Source of the DNA: an uncultured Lachnospiraceae bacterium
Lineage (GTDB): Bacteria; Bacillota; Clostridia; Lachnospirales; Lachnospiraceae
Assembly: GCA_946554445.1 (NCBI GenBank)
Contig: CAMNSD010000017.1
Span: 20,615 to 84,614, forward strand
Direction of reading: 5' to 3'
Length of the DNA stretch: 64,000 nt
Position 1 is the first letter of the stretch; every line of letters begins with the position of its first letter. Of this stretch, positions 52,766-63,847 are shown one piece after another. The notes beneath the pieces were generated by a model, which saw only the letters and a program-made list of their open reading frames with translations, had not been told where the DNA came from and made no database searches. A program made the translations under genes and the position numbers.

Positions 52766-54079
52766 TTACTTTCCACCCCGCAATATGACATTAGCCGTAA
52801 ACATACCGTCCTCAAAATGAAATCGGCTGTAACCGCCGGTTTTTTCCGCGGTATGGCGCACGGCCTGCAGGCCTACGCCCTCCCCGGGACGCTTGGAGGA
52901 GAGGAACACACCGTTTTTCTCACGGATCTTTCCATCGTAAGCGTTTTCCACGGACAATAATACCATATGATCGGCATGTAAATGTGCCTGTACTTTAGTC
53001 TGTTGTCTTTCAGGAGCGGTCTTTAAACCGGCTTCCATCGCATTTTCAAGGAGGTTGGACAGCACGCAGCACAGGTCAGTCTCCGGTACCGGGAGCTGCG
53101 GAGGCAGGTCAAGTTCGAAGGTGAGCGGGATGTGGTGTTCCCGGTACAGCGCTGAGAAGTAGCCTGCCACACCATCCACCGCTGTATTTTTGCACAGTTC
53201 CAGTTCCACCGCCGGGATGCGGCCCTGCGCTTCGTCAAGGTATTTTGCCAGGTGATCCCAGTTTTCTTGGGCGGCGAGGCCCTGCAGGATATGGAAATGG
53301 TGGCGCATATCATGCCGTGCCTGTCTGGTCTGTTCGATGGCGGCCTGGAGACTGTCATACCGTGCCTGCTGCATGGACAGGAGTTGGTTTTCCCGTCGAA
53401 GACGGTCATTGTGGTTTAAACTGGACGCCATAAGGTAAAAAAGCGCATAGAACAGCAGGAGCAGGGCCAGGAGTGTAAAGGCTAACAGGATATAAAGCTG
53501 GCGGAGCCGTCCCTGTTCCAGAATGTCTGGCTCTTTGGGTATTAGAGAAAGGTTCAGGCCGATAAACAGGAGCGGCAGGATCCAGAATACATACCAGGTC
53601 TGGGCAAAACTTTCATCTTCCAGAAGTTTTCTTGCAGCATGGGTGGAAGGATGCCAGACGGCCAGGACGGTCAGGCAGCATATCGCCAACCAGAATAGAG
53701 TACCGCGCAGGGAGAGATGTGTTGCAGGCGCCCCTGGACTTAAGATACCGTTTATAGCAACGGCGGCGCTGCCTAGGCAGGAAAACGCGCCGCATATGGC
53801 AAGGAACACACTGACAGATTTCCACCGGGTAATCTTAAGCGTATGTACATAGAAAATTCCCATGATGGCGGCGACAGGGAAAAACAGCCAGATCGTATCC
53901 ACATGGAAAAGGAAGCCTATGGTACCGCCCAAGGCGCAGAGGAATAGCACCAGTGCTAAGACCATCACGACAAGTTTGGCCGAGGATATCCGCAGGTATC
54001 CTTTCATGGGCAGATAGGCGAGCAGCATACCTGGCAGAAGTACCATAAGTTCCAGAGCGGGACATAAGAATCTCGTCAT
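52766..54079 (-). CDS. AgrC-like GHKL sensor kinase
   Basis: Multi-TM N-terminus, RQARHDMRHH H-box, LSNLLENAMEA, GVGLQAV. Confidence 0.92.
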   Translation of the reverse strand: MTRFLCPALELMVLLPGMLLAYLPMKGYLRISSAKLVVMVLALVLFLCALGGTIGFLFHVDTIWLFFPVAAIMGIFYVHTLKITRWKSVSVFLAICGAFSCLGSAAVAINGILSPGAPATHLSLRGTLFWLAICCLTVLAVWHPSTHAARKLLEDESFAQTWYVFWILPLLFIGLNLSLIPKEPDILEQGRLRQLYILLAFTLLALLLLFYALFYLMASSLNHNDRLRRENQLLSMQQARYDSLQAAIEQTRQARHDMRHHFHILQGLAAQENWDHLAKYLDEAQGRIPAVELELCKNTAVDGVAGYFSALYREHHIPLTFELDLPPQLPVPETDLCCVLSNLLENAMEAGLKTAPERQQTKVQAHLHADHMVLLSVENAYDGKIREKNGVFLSSKRPGEGVGLQAVRHTAEKTGGYSRFHFEDGMFTANVILRGGK

Positions 54080-54795
54080 GATATATCCCTCCTTCCAAAG
54101 AGAAAGTCACCGAAAGCTAATCTTGCAGACTTGGCTAGGTCGCGGCTGACGGGAATCCTTTTTCCATTTTTAAGGATGAAATCTGTGCCGTCAAAATCTT
54201 CGGCGTGTTCCAAATTGACAATGATGCCCCGGCTGCATGGGAAGAAACGTCCATCCGTAAGGCTGGCGCTGAATTCGCGGAAAGTCTGGCGGATTACGGT
54301 TTCCTGTCCGTCTGTCCGGTAGATATGTATCTGGTGCTGGTAATGCTCTGCATAGAGAATTTCCCGGAGGAGCAGGCGGATGGCGCCGCTTGTGCTGCCT
54401 ACCTCGATATATCTTTCCAGGGCAGGGAAACGCTTAACAATCTCGTCAAATAAGTCAGCCAGGTCTGCGGCCGTGTAGGGTTTTACCAGATAGTGGAATG
54501 CCCGGACGCGGAAGCCTTCCAGGGCATGGTCAGTGGAAATGGTGGTGAACACCAGCAGGCAGTCCGTATCGAAGCGGCGCAGTGCCGCCGCCGTATTCAC
54601 CCCGTTTTCATTTCCCATATAAATATCAAGGAATACAAGGTCAAACCGTTCTGCTTCGGCGGCATTGAGAAAATCTGCACCGGAGTCAAAATCAAATATC
54701 ACAGCGTCAAGGGAAAGGCGGGCGATCTGTGCATCCAGCCCTGCTCTTAAATTATCCCGCTCTGACGCAATATCATCCACAATGGCGATTCGCAT
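54076..54795 (-). CDS. LytTR family response regulator (AgrA-like)
   Basis: MRIAIVDD, FLDIYM, YLVKP, ILYAEH, CSRGIIVNL; start reassigned behind ggggg. Confidence 0.93.
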   Translation of the reverse strand: MRIAIVDDIASERDNLRAGLDAQIARLSLDAVIFDFDSGADFLNAAEAERFDLVFLDIYMGNENGVNTAAALRRFDTDCLLVFTTISTDHALEGFRVRAFHYLVKPYTAADLADLFDEIVKRFPALERYIEVGSTSGAIRLLLREILYAEHYQHQIHIYRTDGQETVIRQTFREFSASLTDGRFFPCSRGIIVNLEHAEDFDGTDFILKNGKRIPVSRDLAKSARLAFGDFLFGRRDIS

Positions 54796-55128
54796 GTAAG
54801 CCCCCTTTTTCTGTTTAATGATCATAGGAATCTGCGTCTACTATATTATATCCACAAAAGCAGTAATCCATGGCGATTTCAACAAGAATTGCGCAGCAAT
54901 TCTTGGGACGCAGATTGCTGAATCTGCGTCCATTGTAGCACAAAAATACTAGGAAAAGCGTGAAGATCTATTACAATTCAGGACGGATTTTAACAATTCG
55001 TGCCACGCCTATGGGAAAATTCCGATAAATCCATATACTGAAAATATATGCCCATATGTTGGCAGATGTCAGACAAGGGCAGGGGTAAAAGGAATCATAT
55101 GATCGTAAAAAACAGGGGGAGGGCAAAA

Positions 55129-56139
55129 ATGGCGGATTGGATTATAGTGGTGGATGACGATATCAGCAATCTCAAAATAGCGGGACATATCTTAAGTAAG
55201 GAAAATATGCGTGTAACAGCTCTGAAATCGGGTCAGGCACTTCTGGATTATATTGCAGAAAAGGGAGTGCCTGATCTTGTTTTGCTGGATATCAGGATGC
55301 CGGAAATGGACGGCTTTGAGACTTTGGCTAAACTCAGGGAACAGGAAGCGGAGGGGGAGGAGGTGCCGGTCATTTTTCTGACGGCGGATGAAAATGAAGA
55401 GACAGAGACGAAGGGCTTGTCGCTTGGGGCCATGGATTTTATCAAGAAGCCTTTTGTGCCGGATGTGCTCACGCTCCGCGCCCGCCATATTATAGAGTTA
55501 AATCACCTGCAGAAGAACCTGGAACTGGAAGTGGATAAAAAAACGCAGGAAAATGAGCGCTTGTTCATCCATGTTGTTCAGGCGCTTGCTGAGGCGATTG
55601 ATGCAAAGGATACCTATACGAACGGGCATTCCGGGCGGGTTGCACAGTATGCCAGAGAGATTGCGAGAAGATATGGTTATAAAGGAAAACGGCTGGATGA
55701 TATTTATATGATGGGGCTATTACATGATGTGGGAAAGATAGGGATACCGGATGCAATCATCAATAAACCGGCCAAGCTGACAGATGAGGAATTTGAGGCC
55801 ATCAAAAATCATCCGGTCATGGGGGCCAGGATTCTAAAGAGCATTAAAGAGATGCCATCGCTTGCCACTGGAGCAAGGTGGCATCATGAAAGGTATGATG
55901 GCAGCGGATATCCGGATAGACTTTCCGGTACGGATATTCCGGAAGAAGCGAGGATTACTGCGGTGGCGGATGCCTATGATGCCATGAGCAGCAAAAGAAG
56001 CTACCGTGACGCGCTGCCTCAGGGAATCGTCAGGGAAGAGATTGAGAAAGGCAGCGGTATACAGTTTGATCCTGTCTTTGCAGATATCATGCTTGCGATG
56101 ATTGATGAAGATACGGAATATCATATGAAGGAGAATTAA
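55129..56139 (+). CDS. Response regulator with HD-GYP phosphodiesterase domain
   Basis: IVVDDD, LDIRMP; GHSGRV, LLHDVGKIG, HHERYDGSGYP, DAYDAM. Confidence 0.95.
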   Translation: MADWIIVVDDDISNLKIAGHILSKENMRVTALKSGQALLDYIAEKGVPDLVLLDIRMPEMDGFETLAKLREQEAEGEEVPVIFLTADENEETETKGLSLGAMDFIKKPFVPDVLTLRARHIIELNHLQKNLELEVDKKTQENERLFIHVVQALAEAIDAKDTYTNGHSGRVAQYAREIARRYGYKGKRLDDIYMMGLLHDVGKIGIPDAIINKPAKLTDEEFEAIKNHPVMGARILKSIKEMPSLATGARWHHERYDGSGYPDRLSGTDIPEEARITAVADAYDAMSSKRSYRDALPQGIVREEIEKGSGIQFDPVFADIMLAMIDEDTEYHMKEN

Positions 56140-56176
56140 GGCGCTGGAAGAACACAGCGAAAGGAATGAGATAATA

Positions 56177-58765
56177 ATGAAAGAAAACAGACAGGGAAAT
56201 GAACTGCGATTGATATCACATCTGATTTTGTTGATCACGATGGGGATTTTTGCGGCAATGCTGATCGTGCTGAACAGGATTTTGGAATGGGAGCTGTGGA
56301 TGATTCCCGTGATCATTATGGGTACGATCATCTGCTGGGCAATGCATATATCCCATCGGATGCCGGAACGGGTACAAACCTATATCTGTGGTATTTTTCT
56401 AATATTTCTTACATTTTATTATACTGTGAACAGCGATACGCTTTATGACAACACGGCGCTCATCATTATCCTGATTTTTTTGTTTGCGTTTCAGGGGGAA
56501 ACGATTCTGGCCGTTCTTGAGGTGATAGCGGGATATCTGGGAATTGTCCTGCAGATGTTCCTGATGCAGGGACTGGAATTGGACAGAATGGATACGGTCC
56601 ATGTGATCCGTTCCGGCTGGCAGCTTGCGTTGATTCCACTGGCAGCAGTTTTGGCGGACCGGATAGCGGAAGCCTGGAAGAATGCGGAAAAGGAGTACCA
56701 GCATAGGATTGACGAAGTGATGGTGGAAAATAACAGAGTAAATGATTTCCTGGCCAATGTATCACATGAGATTAGGACGCCTGTCAATGCGGTTATGGGA
56801 CTTTCTTCTGTGTTGGAAAAAATGGATCTTCCAGAAGCAATCCGGGGCAATGTGGCGGCTATATCGGAGGCTGGTCATAGGGTGGCCGAACAGATTGGCG
56901 ATCTGCTTGATTTTACAGAAATTGATATGGGAAAGCTGTCCGTGAGCCGGGAAAATTATATGATTAATTCCCTGATCAATGATCTTCTGGTGCAGCTTTC
57001 CTTTACGGGAAATTACGGGCTTGACCTGGTGATTGATATGGAAGCCGATATACCAGCTGGGCTGGTGGGAGACGGGAGCAAGATCAGGAAAATCCTCTGG
57101 CATCTGATTGGGAACGGGTTTAAGTTTACCCGGGAAGGCGGAGTGTATGTGCATATTTATCCCGTCAAAAGAGAGTATGGCATCAATCTGGTCATGGAGA
57201 TAAAGGATACCGGAACGGGGATGACGGAAGAGCAGATAGAACATATTTATGAGAAGTTTTACCAGTCCGATTCCGGGCGTTCCAGGACTGCGGGAGGGCT
57301 AGGGCTTGGCATATCAATTGTGAACGGTTTTACGAAGGCCATGGGCGGGGTCCTTTCGATAGAGAGCGTGCCTAAGGAGGGCACCACCGTCCGCGTCAGT
57401 ATTCCCCAGGAGGTGGAGGATGAGTCTTCCTGCATTTCCGTAGGAGATAAAGAGAACTGTGTGGCGGCAGGATTTTTGGGCTTCATGACAACGGGGCATC
57501 CCAAGATTCGGGGATATTATATGGAGATGATTGCCCATCTTGTTTCAGGATTGTCTATTTCTTTTCATAGGGTACAGTCCAGGAAAGAACTGGAAAACCT
57601 CATAGCCTCAGTCAAGGTAAGTCATCTGTTTGTGGGAACCGGAGAATATCTGGAGAACCGGGAATATATCGACCGTCTTGCGGATGAAATGAATGTGGCA
57701 GTGGTGGCGGATCAGGGATTTGCGGGACCGGTGGGAAGCCGTATCGCCATGCTCCCGAAGCCTTTTTATGGGGCACAGGTTGCCAATGTCCTGAATCATT
57801 CTTTTGATGAAATGGAGAGCTCCCGCAAAGAAAGAATGGTCTGTCCGGGATTAAGAACCCTGGTGGTGGATGATGAGCCTATGAATCTTCTGGTAGCAAA
57901 AGGAATCTTTGAGGATTACGGTATGGTTGTGACAACGGCCCTCGGTGGTCAGGAGGCTGTCGATCTATGTGGACGGGAAGATTTTGACATTATCTTTATG
58001 GATCATATGATGCCAGAGATGGACGGCGTGGAGGCCATGAAACGGCTCAGGATTAACGCTTCCAAAGACAAAAAGGAGCTTTGTATCGTGGCCCTCACGG
58101 CCAATGCCATAAGTTCGGCAAAGGAAATGTTCCTCTCCGAAGGGTTTGACGGATTTGTACCAAAGCCCATTGAAATCACGGAACTGGAGCGTGTGTTAAA
58201 GCATGTCCTGCCCAAGTCTGCCATTGTCTATCATCGGGAAGGATTTCAGAAAGAGATACCGCCAGAAAGGGAGATGCCTGCGGGGAAGGCACGGGATAAG
58301 TATGAAACACTGGGAGACTGCGGCGTGGATGTGGGGCAGGGACTGAAATATTGTCAGGATGACAGGGATTTTTATGACCAGCTATTGTTGGAGTACGCCA
58401 AGGATGGCGGAAAGAAGGTGAAAGAACTTCAAGCATTTTATGAGGATGGAAAATGGAAGGATTATGCGATACGGATCCATGCAGTCAAAAGCACATCCAA
58501 ACTGATCGGGGCGGTGAAACTGTCTGATACCGCAAGGCTTTTAGAGGAGGCATCCAAGCAGGAAAATGTGGATGAACTCCGTAAGACACATCCTGTTTTT
58601 CTGCCGCTTTATCAGCAGTTGATGGAAAAGATTGTGGGATTGTTGGGGCATGATGAGGAGAGTTTGGGACAAGACGGTGATGCGGGAGATATTCTGGAGT
58701 TCGAGCCGGTGGGCGGGGCAGATGAAGATGTCTTGGAATTTGGGCCGGAAGGGAGCGATATATGA
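56177..58765 (+). CDS. Hybrid histidine kinase (TM-HisKA-HATPase-REC-Hpt)
   Basis: SHEIRTP, NGFKFT, DTGTG, GGLGLG, VVDDE...MDHMMP, Hpt IHAVKSTSKLIGA. Confidence 0.93.
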   Translation: MKENRQGNELRLISHLILLITMGIFAAMLIVLNRILEWELWMIPVIIMGTIICWAMHISHRMPERVQTYICGIFLIFLTFYYTVNSDTLYDNTALIIILIFLFAFQGETILAVLEVIAGYLGIVLQMFLMQGLELDRMDTVHVIRSGWQLALIPLAAVLADRIAEAWKNAEKEYQHRIDEVMVENNRVNDFLANVSHEIRTPVNAVMGLSSVLEKMDLPEAIRGNVAAISEAGHRVAEQIGDLLDFTEIDMGKLSVSRENYMINSLINDLLVQLSFTGNYGLDLVIDMEADIPAGLVGDGSKIRKILWHLIGNGFKFTREGGVYVHIYPVKREYGINLVMEIKDTGTGMTEEQIEHIYEKFYQSDSGRSRTAGGLGLGISIVNGFTKAMGGVLSIESVPKEGTTVRVSIPQEVEDESSCISVGDKENCVAAGFLGFMTTGHPKIRGYYMEMIAHLVSGLSISFHRVQSRKELENLIASVKVSHLFVGTGEYLENREYIDRLADEMNVAVVADQGFAGPVGSRIAMLPKPFYGAQVANVLNHSFDEMESSRKERMVCPGLRTLVVDDEPMNLLVAKGIFEDYGMVVTTALGGQEAVDLCGREDFDIIFMDHMMPEMDGVEAMKRLRINASKDKKELCIVALTANAISSAKEMFLSEGFDGFVPKPIEITELERVLKHVLPKSAIVYHREGFQKEIPPEREMPAGKARDKYETLGDCGVDVGQGLKYCQDDRDFYDQLLLEYAKDGGKKVKELQAFYEDGKWKDYAIRIHAVKSTSKLIGAVKLSDTARLLEEASKQENVDELRKTHPVFLPLYQQLMEKIVGLLGHDEESLGQDGDAGDILEFEPVGGADEDVLEFGPEGSDI

Positions 58766-61437
58766 GGGGAAGATTAAGAGATTTATTTGGCAGGTTTATG
58801 GATGCTGAAGTGGATTTTCAGGAACGAATCTTTCTGCTCCTGACGACCATAGCGGAAAGCGCCATTTTTATTGCGTTTTTTGGGGATGTATTTACGGGGG
58901 AGAACGTGGCGGAGATTGCGGTTCTGGCAGGGCTTCTCATTGCAGCTCCCGTTTTTACGGTTTTTTCCATCCGCAAGGGCAAAGTGAATCTGGGAGCGGC
59001 GCTGAATGCTGTTACGATTATATTCATAGTCCTGCCGGCCACTTTTTATTTCGGCGGCGGTCTTACGGGCGGCTCCAATATCTGGTTTGCGTTTGCCTAT
59101 TTATATATTGGGCTGACCCTGGTGGGAAAGCTGCGTACGGTAATGCTCGTGCTGTTGAATGTGCTCATCGTTGTGGAGTATGTGACGACTTATTTTCACC
59201 CATCGCTTATCATCGAACATAACCGTTTCATGTGGTTTGCGGATTCCGGGATTTCCGTTTTGCTGGTAGGATTTCTTATCTATATCACGGTCCGGTTCCA
59301 GAATAAGATATTTCTCGAAGAAAACAGACGCGCCATGGAGCAGGCCAGGAAAATAGAAAAATTGAACCAGGCCCAGAATCATTTCTTTTCCAGTATGAGC
59401 CATGAGATCCGCACACCGATTAATACGATTATTGGACTAAATGAGATGATCTTAAGGGAGGATGTCTCGGATGAAGTGGCGGAAGATGCCAGGAATATTC
59501 AGGCCGCGTCCAAAATCCTGCTCTCCCTGATCAATGATATCCTGGATATGTCTAAGATAGAGTCCGGCAAAATGGATATTGTCCTCATGCCCTATGATGT
59601 GGGTAAAATGATTTCAGAGATTGTAAATATGATATGGGTGAGGGCCAATGAAAAAGGGCTGCAGTTTACGGTGGACGTAGATCCCGCCATGCCGTCCCAG
59701 TTGTTTTCCGATGAAGTGCGTATCAAGCAGATTTTGATAAATCTTTTGAATAATGCGATCAAATATACGCAGGAGGGCGGGGTATCACTTTCCATCCATA
59801 GCAGAAGGACAGAGCAGGGAAAGGCATATGTGACGTATACCGTAAAGGATACCGGTATGGGAATCCGCAAGGAAAGCATACCGCATTTATTTGATGCATT
59901 CCGGCGCGAGGATGAGGAAAAGAACAGATATATAGAGGGAACCGGACTGGGACTGTCCATTGTAAAACAGCTTGTAGATCTTCTGGGCGGGGAGATTTTT
60001 GTTGACAGCGTGTATACGAAGGGCTCGACCTTTACGGTAACGATACAACAGGAAATTGTAGATGGAAAAACGATAGGAAAATATGATCCCAGAAAATTTC
60101 ACGCATCGGATGTCAGGGAGCGTTACCATCAAAGCTTTGAGGCGCCCAAGGCAAGGATTCTTATCGTTGACGATAACACGGCGAACCTGCTTGTGGCAAC
60201 AAAGCTTCTCAGGGAGACGAAGGTACAGATTGATACGGCCCGCAGCGGGGAGGAGTGTCTGAACTTTACTTCCCAGGTAAAGTACCAGGTCATTTTTATG
60301 GATCATATGATGCCCGGCATGGATGGGATAGAATGCCTGCATGCCATCAGGGAACAATCCGGCGGGCTGTGCAGGGACACGCCGGTAGTCGTGTTGACTG
60401 CCAATGCGGGAAGTGAGAATCAGATGCTGTATCACAGGGAGGGCTTTGACGGATATCTTTTAAAACCGGTGGAAGGTGCTGTTTTGGAAGGAACATTGCT
60501 CAAATTACTGCCGGGTGATCTTGTGTCCATCAGCAAGGAGGAGAGAGATGAATTGGAAGCGGATCAGCTTGTACGCGAAACAAGACATAAGATTCCTTTG
60601 CTGATCACGACAGACAGTGTTTCCGACTTGCCGGGGAATCTGCTTACAAGGATGAAAATACCTGTGCTTCCCTATAAAGTACATACGGAGGAAGGAATTT
60701 TTTTTGACGGGTTGGAGGCAGAGAGTGACGCGATCCTCCGATATCTGGAGGATAGAGATTCCAGGGCCAGAAGTGAGGCTCCCGATGTAGCGGAGTACGA
60801 AAGCTTTTTTGCGGGGCTTTTGTCCGGTACTCAGCACGTCCTGCACATAGCCATGGCCGAGCATTCCAGCAATGGTTATGCGAACGCCAGCGAAGCTGCA
60901 CTTTCCTTTTATAATGTAAAAGTGATCGAATCGGGGCATCTGTCCAGCGGCATGGGCCTCATGGTGCTTGCAGCCAAGGAATTGGCAGATGCGGGGCAGT
61001 TTGATATGGATATCCTGCGCAGGGAATTGGAACAGAAAAGGGAAAAGATACGAACCAGTTTCATTGTAGACAGCACGGAATACCTGTATCGGGGCGGGAG
61101 ACTTCCCGAACGGATCCATAAGTTTTGTAAGGCTTTTATGCTACATCCTGTAATCAAAATGAAAAAAAGTTCCATGCAGGTTGGTGGGATCATTATCGGG
61201 AGCAGTAAGAAAGCCAGAAGTGCTTATATCCGTAAAGTACTGCGGCGGTCTTCCGAGATTGATACGTCTGTACTCTTCATCACCTATGCGGGAATGCGCA
61301 GGCAGGAAGTGGAAGAAATCAGGCAGGAAGTGCTGACAATCCTGAAATTTGAGAAGATATATCTTCAGAAGGCATCTCCCGCCATATCCATTAACTGCGG
61401 GCCGGGAAGCTTTGGGTTGATATTTGCCAGGAAATAG
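58762..61437 (+). CDS. Hybrid histidine kinase with C-terminal DegV domain
   Basis: SHEIRTP, NNAIKYT, GTGLGL, IVDDN...MDHMMP, then ITTDSVSDLP...YLYRGGRL...NCGPG DegV-like region. Confidence 0.9.
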   Translation: MRGRLRDLFGRFMDAEVDFQERIFLLLTTIAESAIFIAFFGDVFTGENVAEIAVLAGLLIAAPVFTVFSIRKGKVNLGAALNAVTIIFIVLPATFYFGGGLTGGSNIWFAFAYLYIGLTLVGKLRTVMLVLLNVLIVVEYVTTYFHPSLIIEHNRFMWFADSGISVLLVGFLIYITVRFQNKIFLEENRRAMEQARKIEKLNQAQNHFFSSMSHEIRTPINTIIGLNEMILREDVSDEVAEDARNIQAASKILLSLINDILDMSKIESGKMDIVLMPYDVGKMISEIVNMIWVRANEKGLQFTVDVDPAMPSQLFSDEVRIKQILINLLNNAIKYTQEGGVSLSIHSRRTEQGKAYVTYTVKDTGMGIRKESIPHLFDAFRREDEEKNRYIEGTGLGLSIVKQLVDLLGGEIFVDSVYTKGSTFTVTIQQEIVDGKTIGKYDPRKFHASDVRERYHQSFEAPKARILIVDDNTANLLVATKLLRETKVQIDTARSGEECLNFTSQVKYQVIFMDHMMPGMDGIECLHAIREQSGGLCRDTPVVVLTANAGSENQMLYHREGFDGYLLKPVEGAVLEGTLLKLLPGDLVSISKEERDELEADQLVRETRHKIPLLITTDSVSDLPGNLLTRMKIPVLPYKVHTEEGIFFDGLEAESDAILRYLEDRDSRARSEAPDVAEYESFFAGLLSGTQHVLHIAMAEHSSNGYANASEAALSFYNVKVIESGHLSSGMGLMVLAAKELADAGQFDMDILRRELEQKREKIRTSFIVDSTEYLYRGGRLPERIHKFCKAFMLHPVIKMKKSSMQVGGIIIGSSKKARSAYIRKVLRRSSEIDTSVLFITYAGMRRQEVEEIRQEVLTILKFEKIYLQKASPAISINCGPGSFGLIFARK

Positions 61438-61455
61438 TGCAAGGAGGGATAATTG

Positions 61456-62289
61456 ATGCGGACATACATACAAAAAAGGTTGTCAATGTTGGCGGGTATG
61501 CTGTTTTTGATACTATTGTTTTCAGGCTGTGGAAAGAATGCGGCCCAGAATGGAGAAGCCGCATTGATACCGAATCCATCGGAGGATTTGTCCTATATTA
61601 AGCAGAAAGGGACGCTGGTGGTGGGCGTTACGGATTTTGCTCCGCTGGATTACAAAGCCGGCGATTCCTGGACGGGATTTGACGCAGAGACTGCCATAGC
61701 TTTTGCAGGACGGCTTGGAGTAGAGATAGAATTTATGGAAATAGATTGGGACCAAAAGACAAAACTGTTGGAAAATGGGGAGATTGACCTGATCTGGAAT
61801 GGGATGACGAGAACGGATGACCTGGAAAACAGCATTAGCTGCTCCAATCCATATCTCTCAAATGCGCAGGTCTACGTGATGAGACAGGAGGATATTTCCA
61901 GGTTCACTTCGGCTGAAAAATGTGCCAATCTCCTTTTTTCCTGTGAAAAAGGTTCCACTGCGGAAGCAATCCTGAATGAAAGAAAATATCGTTATAATGG
62001 ATTTGAGTCGCAGCGGGAAGCGCTTGAGGCATTGGAAAAGGGCAAAACCGATGTTGCCGTTGTGGATATGGTCATGGCAGCCAGTATGACCGGAGAAGGT
62101 GCAGAATTTTCGGACCTGGCTTTTGATTTTCCGTTAAATGAGGAGGTTATCTGTGTGGGATTTCGCAAAGGTTCAGATCTGAAAGGGGAACTAGATACAT
62201 TTTTCACAGATATCTTTGCGGATGGGACAATTTATCAGATTGCCGATAAATATGGGCTGGGGGATGCGTTAATTCAATATACGGACTGA
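61456..62289 (+). CDS. Amino-acid-type ABC substrate-binding lipoprotein (SBP family 3)
   Basis: Lipobox LFSGC, LVVGVTDFAPLDY, GFDAE, IDWD, DLIWNGMT. Confidence 0.9.
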   Translation: MRTYIQKRLSMLAGMLFLILLFSGCGKNAAQNGEAALIPNPSEDLSYIKQKGTLVVGVTDFAPLDYKAGDSWTGFDAETAIAFAGRLGVEIEFMEIDWDQKTKLLENGEIDLIWNGMTRTDDLENSISCSNPYLSNAQVYVMRQEDISRFTSAEKCANLLFSCEKGSTAEAILNERKYRYNGFESQREALEALEKGKTDVAVVDMVMAASMTGEGAEFSDLAFDFPLNEEVICVGFRKGSDLKGELDTFFTDIFADGTIYQIADKYGLGDALIQYTD

Positions 62290-62307
62290 TAAAATGACAC
62301 CCGAATC

Positions 62308-62333
62308 GGTATAGGAAAGTTCTTTGTTTATCC
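62308..62333 (+). repeat. Dispersed intergenic motif, copy 4 (shorter)
   Basis: ggtataggaaagttctttgtttatcc. Confidence 0.65.
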
Positions 62334-62336
62334 AAT

Positions 62337-62378
62337 GGCAGCTGTCTGAAAGGGAGATTTTCAGGCAGTTGCCTTTTT
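62337..62378 (+). terminator. Terminator after the signalling operon
   Basis: ggcagctgtctgaaa / tttcaggcagttgcc plus T5. Confidence 0.8.
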
Positions 62379-62485
62379 ATAGGAGCGTGCTATAATAAGA
62401 CAATAGAGATATCCGTGTGATTCAGGTAAGCGGACGGGATGTTCTTTTATGTTTTTATTATCTTACATAACGGAGGAAACTTTCA

Positions 62486-63847
62486 GTGAGAATCATAATA
62501 GCGGGAGACGGTAAAGTCGGTTCCACGCTGACGAGACAGTTGGTTGCAGAGGGACACGATATTACACTGATTGATGCCAGGGCGGAAGTTCTTGAAGTCA
62601 GCGAGGAGCGCTATGATGTGATGGCAGTGCAGGGGAACTGCGCTTCCATGGATACTTTGTCCAGGGCCGGTGTGGAGGAAGCGGAGGTTCTGCTCGTCAT
62701 GACGGGAGCAGATGAGGTGAACTTGCTGTGTTGTGCAATTGCGCATGTCATGAATCCCGGATTGCATACAATAGCGAGGATTAGGAATCCGGAATACAGG
62801 GGGCAGATTTATCAGATGAGAAATCTATTTGGTCTGTCCATGGTGATTAATCCGGAGAGCCAGGCGGCCATAGAGATGGCACGTCTGATTAAGTATCCCG
62901 GATTTTTGAAACGTGACACTTTTGCCAAGGGTAAAGTGGAGATTGTGGAACTGCGTATTCAAGAAGATTCCAAGTTGCGGGATGTGAGCCTGTACGGACT
63001 GGGCAACGTGGTCAAATGCAAAATTTTGGTCTGTGCTGTCTTGCGGAACGGCAAGGCGATTATTCCGGATGGTAATTTTGTATTGCAGGCAGGGGATCGT
63101 ATTTTTGTTACGGCGTCCACCAGGGAATTGACGATTTTCCTCAAAAATATGGGTATTATTACGCACAAAGCCAAGCGGGTAATCTTGTGCGGCGGCGGCC
63201 GTCTCAGCTTTTATCTGGCGCAGCTTCTCGTGCGTGATGGGATCATGGTAGAGATCATAGAGCAGGATTATGACAGGTGCATGTCTTTAGCGAACCAGCT
63301 GCCGGATGTAACAGTAGTACACGGCGATGCCAGTAGCGAGTTTCTGTTGGATAGAGAGGGCATTTCAGAATGTGACGCACTTGTCACTTTGACCGGTGTG
63401 GATGAGATGAATATCATTATCTCCCTCTTTGGCAACAGCCGTAAAGTACCGCAGATTATTACGAAACTGGGACGTCTTAGCAACAACAGTATTCTGGATA
63501 CTCTTTCGGTGGGCAGTACCATCAGTCCCAAAGAGTTGTGTTGTAATGATATTCTCCGGTATGTGCGGGGCATCAGGAACCAGGCGGGCGCGGCCCAGGC
63601 GGTCAATGCGATTGCGGATGGCCAGGCGGAAGCCATAGAGTTTATTGTGGATGAGAACACGAAGCACTGTGAGGAACCGCTCAAGAAAGTAAAACTGAAG
63701 AAGAATATCCGTATTGCGGGTATCAATAAACTCAACAGCTTTGAGATAGCCAACGGTGATTCGTTCTATTCCAAAGGAGATAGAGTGATTATTGTGACAG
63801 GAAGAGATGAAGTCATTTATCAGTTAAATGATATTTTTGAATCATAA
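62486..63847 (+). CDS. trkA: Trk potassium uptake protein TrkA
   Basis: Two RCK N/C pairs; MRIIIAGDGKVG and ILCGGGRL. Confidence 0.95.
   Translation: MRIIIAGDGKVGSTLTRQLVAEGHDITLIDARAEVLEVSEERYDVMAVQGNCASMDTLSRAGVEEAEVLLVMTGADEVNLLCCAIAHVMNPGLHTIARIRNPEYRGQIYQMRNLFGLSMVINPESQAAIEMARLIKYPGFLKRDTFAKGKVEIVELRIQEDSKLRDVSLYGLGNVVKCKILVCAVLRNGKAIIPDGNFVLQAGDRIFVTASTRELTIFLKNMGIITHKAKRVILCGGGRLSFYLAQLLVRDGIMVEIIEQDYDRCMSLANQLPDVTVVHGDASSEFLLDREGISECDALVTLTGVDEMNIIISLFGNSRKVPQIITKLGRLSNNSILDTLSVGSTISPKELCCNDILRYVRGIRNQAGAAQAVNAIADGQAEAIEFIVDENTKHCEEPLKKVKLKKNIRIAGINKLNSFEIANGDSFYSKGDRVIIVTGRDEVIYQLNDIFES

Follow-up and report, generated by a model that had tools for sequence, protein, structure and literature searches.

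In Xanthomonas campestris, the fatty acid DSF (diffusible signal factor) is sensed by RpfC, a kinase with five or six transmembrane (TM) helices, no large periplasmic domain and the domain order DHp-CA-REC-HPt, which activates RpfG, a REC-HD-GYP phosphodiesterase acting on cyclic di-GMP (c-di-GMP); in this single-kinase system, DSF is bound by a 22-residue N-terminal periplasmic segment of RpfC (PMC5391125). In Staphylococcus aureus, the DegV-handled pool of free fatty acids (FakA/FakB) modulates the intramembrane-sensing SaeRS kinase (PMC5539427). Here, we analyse a locus at positions 55129-61437 of a 64,000-nucleotide stretch of DNA (the window) from a gut or rumen Lachnospiraceae-type bacterium with a genome of 4.39 Mb. 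Three genes of the same orientation encode a REC-HD-GYP response regulator and two membrane hybrid histidine kinases (HKs), HK2 and HK3, with the architectures 6TM-HisKA-HATPase-REC-Hpt and 6TM-HisKA-HATPase-REC-DegV, respectively (REC, receiver; Hpt, histidine phosphotransfer). Judging from these sequences, the two membrane kinases most likely pass phosphate to an enzyme that degrades c-di-GMP. It also seems to us somewhat more probable than its opposite that they form a branched relay with one shared Hpt, which is gated by a lipid, sets the level of c-di-GMP and works like RpfC/RpfG, by analogy the functionally closest known system.

The genes of the locus and their parts, in positions of the window, are as follows:

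55129-56139, + strand: response regulator REC-HD-GYP, 336 amino acids (aa), with REC at about 55141-55479 and HD-GYP at about 55582-56073
56177-58765, + strand: HK2, membrane hybrid kinase, 862 aa (Pfam, hydropathy and a hidden Markov model (HMM) of the family Hpt)
56213-56656, + strand: HK2, segment of about six TM helices (hydropathy)
56741-56929, + strand: HK2, HisKA (Pfam)
57068-57412, + strand: HK2, HATPase (Pfam)
57419-57871, + strand: HK2, conserved insert of about 145 aa (aa 415-565) between the ATPase domain and the receiver
57860-58195, + strand: HK2, REC (Pfam)
58301-58636, + strand: HK2, Hpt (weak Pfam match and family HMM)
58762-61437, + strand: HK3, membrane hybrid kinase with a C-terminal DegV domain, 891 aa (Pfam, TIGRFAM)
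58828-59292, + strand: HK3, segment of about six TM helices (hydropathy)
59374-59568, + strand: HK3, HisKA (Pfam)
59710-60051, + strand: HK3, HATPase (Pfam)
60157-60486, + strand: HK3, REC (Pfam), followed by a flexible linker
60601-61431, + strand: HK3, DegV (Pfam PF02645, TIGR00762)
61393-61395, + strand: codon of HK3 Asn878, at the position of the canonical carboxylate-binding His
61456-62289, + strand: orphan SBP_bac_3 lipoprotein, 277 aa (Pfam SBP_bac_3, 5.2e-26; lipobox LFSGC)
62337-62382, + strand: intrinsic terminator, a 16-pair stem followed by a T-run, closing the predicted four-gene operon

A preliminary description of this DNA, made from its letters and open reading frames, had given the same order of three genes with the same domains, an ATGA coupling and no large extracellular sensor in either kinase. 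Order and domains are borne out by the open reading frames and by profile matches to Pfam and TIGRFAM, and the ATGA can be read directly at 58762-58765, where the stop codon of HK2 overlaps the start of HK3. The three genes therefore stand as an operon, but its extent has to be revised, as the co-oriented gene for the SBP (solute-binding protein) lipoprotein had been overlooked. This fourth gene lies directly behind HK3, and the only strong terminator-like site found by a terminator scan of the + strand from 54700 to 62600 follows it; for these reasons, the unit is taken as four genes, and the predicted operon spans 55129-62289. The next gene downstream of the lipoprotein gene is trkA. A promoter scan upstream of 55129 revealed no convincing sigma-70 site, and a search of the window against Rfam revealed no riboswitch or other RNA family. 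With regard to the sensors, the first ~180 residues of both kinases comprise about six hydrophobic helices, and these are joined by short loops according to hydropathy; a Pfam search at permissive E-values gave no match for either six-TM region or for the insert of HK2; therefore, neither kinase has a large extracellular sensor, in keeping with the preliminary description.

The residues required for a multistep relay are present throughout. The regulator matches Response_reg (2.7e-28), HD_5 (1.2e-33) and HD (1.9e-24) of Pfam and, its HD and HHE..GYP motifs being intact, is a predicted c-di-GMP phosphodiesterase; its phospho-Asp, HD and HHE..GYP are kept in 34 of 34 relatives. The ribosome-binding site GGGGGAGGG precedes its ATG at 55129, and a start at the upstream ATG at 55048 (363 aa) was rejected because this site and the length of the homologues favour 55129. 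The Hpt of HK2 scores 18.2 bits in Pfam, under the cut-off of 24.6; its assignment is supported by the family Hpt HMM, which gives 135 bits, and by the invariance of His768 in 70 of 70 relatives, to which H197, D609 and K771 can be added with the same count. In HK3, H214, D514, T546 and K568 are kept in 79 of 79 family members. The cores of the two kinases are only 33% identical, and their TM domains are unrelated. A classification into intermediary and terminal receivers (PMC9981736) was not discriminating, since the T and Y/F switch residues are present in HK2 and HK3 alike. In relatives, the insert of HK2 (57419-57871) retains 'PKP(F/L)Y', a motif like that of receivers, and could be a pseudo-receiver that has degenerated.

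HK3 belongs to a large conserved family, which, like the functional analogy with RpfC/RpfG, goes beyond the preliminary description; across Clostridia, its gene module is widespread. A protein search returned 1142 relatives that share its architecture of about 890 aa and are named only 'DegV family EDD domain-containing protein'; NCBIfam holds no model specific for the kinase-fused DegV. A scan for loci with the full-length HK3 alignment was discarded, because HisKA motifs dominated the matches and most of these were hybrid kinases of no relation, and it was redone with an alignment of DegV only. The DegV-specific scan, with one genome per species, gave at least 583 matches, mostly in rumen or gut Lachnospiraceae, Ruminococcus, Oscillospiraceae, Eubacterium and Acetatifactor, and the module was found in 28 of the 200 genera sampled from the window's own family. 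In 76 relative loci (designated here by L numbers), open reading frames were called and labelled with HMMs built from the domains of the window. A TM-HK-REC-Hpt kinase with an HK2-type membrane domain lies immediately upstream of the DegV kinase in 60 of the 66 loci with enough DNA, and the two kinase genes overlap (stop/start) in 54 of 71 pairs, by exactly four bases in 38. Exactly one Hpt is present per kinase pair in 71/71 cases, carried by the partner in 70 and by the DegV kinase in one, with L168 additional to these. At least one gene for a c-di-GMP enzyme occurs in the block in 42 of the 56 loci with both flanks; these genes encode REC-HD-GYP (27), REC-GGDEF-REC-HD-GYP (9), GGDEF (9) or EAL (11) proteins. 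The neighbours of the DegV kinase in the relative loci are c-di-GMP enzymes and never lipid-synthesis genes, and precomputed Pfam annotation of three independent contigs gave the same pattern of the module. All relatives examined share, without exception, the catalytic His, the receiver Asp/Thr/Lys and the Hpt His as well as the HD and HHE..GYP motifs.

The ligand binding, route of phosphotransfer, sign of the response and cellular output that we infer would fit together as follows. HK2 (at His197) and HK3 (at His214), which have different TM sensor modules, would autophosphorylate, and each would hand the phosphoryl group to its own receiver (Asp609 in HK2 and Asp514 in HK3). Because only HK2 has an Hpt domain, both receivers would then use this single Hpt (His768), which would phosphorylate the REC-HD-GYP regulator and alter its c-di-GMP phosphodiesterase activity; in relatives, cyclases or dual enzymes would be controlled instead. 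The DegV domain of HK3, a putative member of a 'signalling' branch of the FakB/DegV family with Asn in place of His, would be held near the membrane by a flexible linker and would take its ligand, a fatty acid or similar amphiphile, from the inner leaflet. This sampling of the inner leaflet is proposed by reference to FakB proteins, which are reported to dock on the membrane for fatty-acid exchange (PMC8892158). Occupancy of DegV would gate phosphoryl flow, either via the balance between kinase and phosphatase activities or via the transfer from REC to Hpt, and the orphan SBP lipoprotein might provide an optional second, extracellular input.

The identity of the DegV domain is clear from its profile matches. 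It covers positions 3-279 of the 280 in PF02645 (3.6e-39, 135.2 bits against a cut-off of 27), scores 149.4 bits against TIGR00762 (cut-off 99.7) and contains TTDSVSD, GGR and NCGPG, so that the motifs named in the preliminary description (DS-x-x-D, GGR, and NCGPG where H-x-GPG is usual) were all recovered. An AlphaFold2 model of HK3 aa 606-891, based on an alignment of 48 relatives, has a pLDDT (predicted local distance difference test) of 94.1 and a pTM (predicted template modelling score) of 0.91. The 45 best Foldseek matches of this model in the PDB are all DegV/FakB structures (TM score 0.81-0.88, root-mean-square deviation 2.5-3.9 Å), among them 5UTO, 4X9X, 7W7H and 2DT8 (S. aureus FakB1/FakB2, S. 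suis FakB2 and T. thermophilus DegV); most were crystallised with a fatty acid, and DhaK comes next, far behind. By model and structural search together, the domain has the two-domain EDD-type fold of the fatty-acid-binding proteins.

Its binding site is less typical. In FakB, Thr61, Ser93 and His264 (numbering of S. suis FakB2) hydrogen-bond the carboxylate, and Leu181 and Arg202 contact FakA (PMC10848957, PMC9136124); Arg170/173, which sits where the tunnel opens, is required for phosphorylation by FakA and dispensable for binding (PMC9136124). These residues were mapped to HK3 by HMMER alignment to S. aureus FakB2 (4x9x) and counted over 79 family members:

S671, equivalent to FakB Thr61: kept in 75/79
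S703, equivalent to FakB Ser93: kept in 72/79
R780, equivalent to FakB Arg170 (tunnel-entrance Arg): Arg in 71/79, Lys in 5, Gln in 3
N878, equivalent to FakB His264: Asn in 79/79
A791, equivalent to FakB Leu181: Ala in 57/79, never Leu
S815, equivalent to FakB Arg202: Arg in 48/79, Ser in the window, with the alignment near 815 less certain

In addition, position 795 is His in 76/79 of the family and Lys/Arg-Pro in canonical DegV proteins. The carboxylate triad Thr/Ser-Ser-His is therefore incomplete, both Ser being kept and the His lost to Asn, and the FakA-contact pair Leu181/Arg202 is replaced by Ala791 and Ser815. Conservation within the family is unusually high, with a mean column identity of about 60-64% between genera, and extends to the surface motifs YExFF and LFITYxG. 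On this evidence, the domain reads as an entire DegV under strong constraint; its head-group site is remodelled, and one hallmark of FakB, the His, is missing. Binding of a fatty acid or another lipid is plausible from sequence and model. Accordingly, the suggestion in the preliminary description that lipid sensing is coupled to c-di-GMP holds with regard to architecture and linkage (42/56 and 60/66 loci), and its lipid part is plausible. In a model of REC and DegV together, both domains fold confidently, the linker (aa 592-609) has a pLDDT below 50, the pTM is 0.66 and there is no confident interface; therefore, no structural mechanism for coupling can be drawn from the model. The disordered linker suggests, however, that the DegV domain is probably mobile and tethered near the membrane.

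The window's own genome and a few rearranged relatives are informative as to what the DegV domain may do. At C4:121403-128108, the same genome carries a second, diverged trio of REC-HD-GYP, HK-REC-Hpt and HK-REC-DegV genes with no SBP gene; the DegV kinases of the two trios are 45% identical and the Hpt kinases 31%, and the second DegV kinase has an NCGIG motif and Lys at the position of R780. HK2-type and HK3-type membrane domains have two matches each in this genome, all within the two modules. The genome also encodes one FakA and five ordinary DegV proteins, the gene for one of which adjoins fakA, and lipid uptake thus does not need HK3. A DegV protein of ordinary length (291 aa; C4:110092-110967, - strand) has a very divergent C-terminus, with YANDGG where HxGPG is usual, and forms the longest branch of the tree described below. 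Among the relatives, two kinds of rearrangement were found:

L003:2260-5724 and L168:7926-11384: DegV kinase of the form TM-HK-REC-DegV-Hpt (1152-1154 aa), with a partner kinase that ends after the receiver
L166:8022-8882, - strand, and L167:7991-8842, + strand: stand-alone Asn-type DegV (283-286 aa) after a single HK-REC-Hpt gene, which it overlaps in L167, and no DegV kinase

Open frames of a length similar to TM-HK-REC-DegV-Hpt occur in three further genomes of the family survey. The relocation of the Hpt between the genes of L003 and L168 is what would be expected if one Hpt serves both kinases. In L166, HD-GYP regulators adjoin the pair, and in L167, no c-di-GMP gene other than that of a GGDEF protein was seen. 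In a maximum-likelihood tree, a 100/99 split separates the Asn-type DegV sequences, whether fused, DegV-Hpt or stand-alone, from the canonical His-type DegV proteins. The sequences therefore argue that the Asn-type branch is a dedicated accessory module of phosphorelays, and the DegV-Hpt and stand-alone variants argue for DegV as an input module. Considering the rearrangements, the tree, and the genome's own FakA and DegV proteins, the Asn-type DegV would be neither a carrier for lipid uptake nor an output domain that needs a receiver in front of it.

Several points nonetheless weigh against a lipid-gated relay through a shared Hpt. No c-di-GMP gene lies within three genes in 14 of the 56 loci, the outgroup of the tree is small (7 canonical His-type DegV sequences) with long branches, and the receiver of HK3 could be a phosphate sink that does not feed the Hpt. 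The exchanges at N878 (79/79) and at 795 (Lys/Arg to His, 76/79) alter the head-group site and, the change of His to Asn being invariant in the family, the ligand of HK3 may not be an ordinary free fatty acid. These same exchanges would suit a DegV domain that holds no lipid and serves to dock on and regulate REC, Hpt or the kinase core, in which case signals would enter through the six-TM domains (membrane state) and, where present, the SBP. The high conservation, surface motifs included, suggests a protein partner of this sort, and the conserved TM sensor modules of both kinases are confined to this module in the window's own genome. However, the full two-domain fold and the Ser/Ser/Arg head-group residues are kept, an Asn can still hydrogen-bond a carboxylate, and the solved DegV/FakB matches mostly hold a fatty acid; on the whole, we regard a lipid-free docking domain as rather unlikely. 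The sink can be taken further, with HK3 as an antagonist whose receiver drains the Hpt of HK2 or which forms a heterodimer with HK2 as RetS does with GacS, so that a DegV ligand would lower the output of the relay. HK3 has no Hpt of its own, the translational coupling of the kinase genes in 54/71 loci is consistent with a complex, and the kinase cores share only 33% identity with unrelated TM domains. Yet HK3 lacks none of the catalytic residues expected of an active kinase (H214, D514 and the HATPase motifs; 79/79), and the Hpt on the DegV kinase of the HK-REC-DegV-Hpt variants suits a donor at least as well as a sink, which makes this antagonism unlikely.

Two further explanations take the enzymology of FakB more literally. 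The DegV domain could be a working FakB, namely, a membrane-tethered carrier that gives fatty acid to FakA while REC controls exogenous uptake, which would make it the output of HK3 and not its sensor. R780, whose FakB counterpart serves phosphorylation and not binding (PMC9136124), is kept in 71/79, the own genome has one FakA, and the domain stands C-terminal to REC, the usual place of an output domain. The equivalent of Arg202 is, moreover, Arg in 48/79 family members though the equivalent of Leu181 is Ala in 57/79, so that DegV might contact FakA. Against this, no family member has Leu at the equivalent of Leu181, Ser stands in for Arg202 in the window, the neighbours are never lipid-synthesis genes, five ordinary DegV genes, one adjoining fakA, already serve FakA, and the stand-alone and HK-REC-DegV-Hpt forms indicate that a position after REC is not required; a working FakB is accordingly improbable. 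Finally, the receiver might phosphorylate the carboxylate of the bound fatty acid directly, a FakA-free route to acyl-phosphate that would amount to a histidine-kinase-driven fatty-acid kinase. The only points in its favour are the placing of a phospho-Asp domain beside a carboxylate-presenting domain and the retention of the charge-neutralising Arg780. It has no precedent, the long disordered linker shows no predicted interface between REC and DegV, and the conserved partners (Hpt and c-di-GMP enzymes) point to signalling, and we consider it very improbable. A branched, lipid-gated relay with a shared Hpt thus remains the reading that we favour.

If this reading is correct, the FakB-like domain would act as a direct, testable lipid receptor inside a phosphorelay controlling c-di-GMP. 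It would be the first case of signalling by the DegV fold and would open a way into c-di-GMP control in Lachnospiraceae and Ruminococcus. Fatty acids abound in the gut and rumen, where they are often toxic, and little is known of how commensal Clostridia sense them. We tentatively suggest, at somewhat less than even confidence, that the Asn-type DegV is a new class of cytoplasmic, membrane-sampling lipid receptor, by means of which many Clostridia of the gut and rumen would detect fatty acids from diet, host or microbes (or acyl-phosphate) and accordingly switch c-di-GMP-dependent behaviour such as motility and attachment. Gram-positive bacteria would then possess their own equivalent of DSF signalling, assembled from a protein of lipid metabolism. 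As the family is large and includes natural split, fused and rearranged forms, experiments at the level of single domains should be straightforward.

The fourth gene of the predicted operon deserves separate mention. It starts with an ATG at 61456, about 15-18 bases after HK3, behind the ribosome-binding site AGGAGGG, and no ABC transporter genes lie beside it. The nearest solved structures of its product are polar amino-acid binding proteins and the Venus flytrap (VFT) domains of BvgS. A homologous SBP occurs at the same position in 12 of 56 relative loci, and the lipoprotein is a candidate accessory extracellular sensor. For action as in the SBP-dependent kinase systems (LuxP/LuxQ, TorT/TorS and BvgS-like), a binding protein co-transcribed with the kinase and a periplasmic kinase domain on which it docks would be expected; the orphan gene lies inside the predicted operon, and the extracellular loops of HK2 and HK3 comprise at most about 15 residues. 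Directly upstream of the operon, in divergent orientation and with no evident operon link, lies a separate two-component pair (52766-54825, - strand):

54076-54825, - strand: LytTR response regulator
52766-54079, - strand: GHKL/HATPase_c_5 membrane kinase

Two observations concern the relatives. Downstream of the DegV kinase, a protein of about 630 aa with a C-terminal EAL domain recurs in eleven loci (L085:6925-8829 and 10 others), and its conserved N-terminal portion of about 395 aa matches no Pfam family at permissive E-values. In L123 (metagenome-assembled genome of a rumen Treponema sp.), the complete module of REC-HD-GYP, HK-REC-Hpt, HK-REC-DegV and SBP stands on a contig binned as Treponema; either a spirochaete has acquired the module horizontally, or the contig was misbinned.

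Within the context of known systems, HK2 and the regulator reproduce the architecture of RpfC/RpfG, that is, a multi-TM DHp-CA-REC-HPt kinase and a REC-HD-GYP protein with intact motifs. However, the present locus has two kinases, and the part presumed to bind lipid is the DegV domain of the second, in the cytoplasm; none of the four operon genes encodes an RpfF-type synthase (crotonase family), and the hosts are Gram-positive Clostridia. With the FakB/DegV proteins, HK3 shares the Pfam/TIGRFAM family, the two-domain fold and the head-group Thr/Ser, Ser and Arg. It differs from FakB, a free protein of about 290 aa, in that its DegV domain is fused to a membrane hybrid kinase, has Asn for His in all family members, lacks the FakA-contact Leu, falls in a separate clade and shows linkage to genes for phosphorelays and c-di-GMP enzymes instead of fakA or plsX. 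In S. aureus SaeRS, the link between fatty acids and the kinase is indirect, via separate Fak proteins, and the output is transcription, whereas in HK3 DegV is built into the kinase itself and the predicted output is c-di-GMP turnover.

The proposed sharing of an Hpt has its own parallels. In the LadS/GacS pathway of Pseudomonas aeruginosa and in the LuxQ/CqsS to LuxU pathways of Vibrio, a hybrid kinase that lacks an Hpt uses a shared one, on which inputs converge. The present pair resembles these relays in having two hybrid kinases and one Hpt, with the phospho-sites intact. It differs from them in that their outputs are regulators that bind DNA or control small RNAs, their sensor domains are periplasmic, and they have neither an overlapping gene pair nor a DegV domain. 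A full-text literature search found no paper describing histidine kinases or phosphorelays that contain DegV, which fits the remark in the preliminary description that the architecture was not known to have been characterised. In comparison with these systems, a phosphorelay to c-di-GMP is rated as known, and the type of its putative input domain, DegV, as new.

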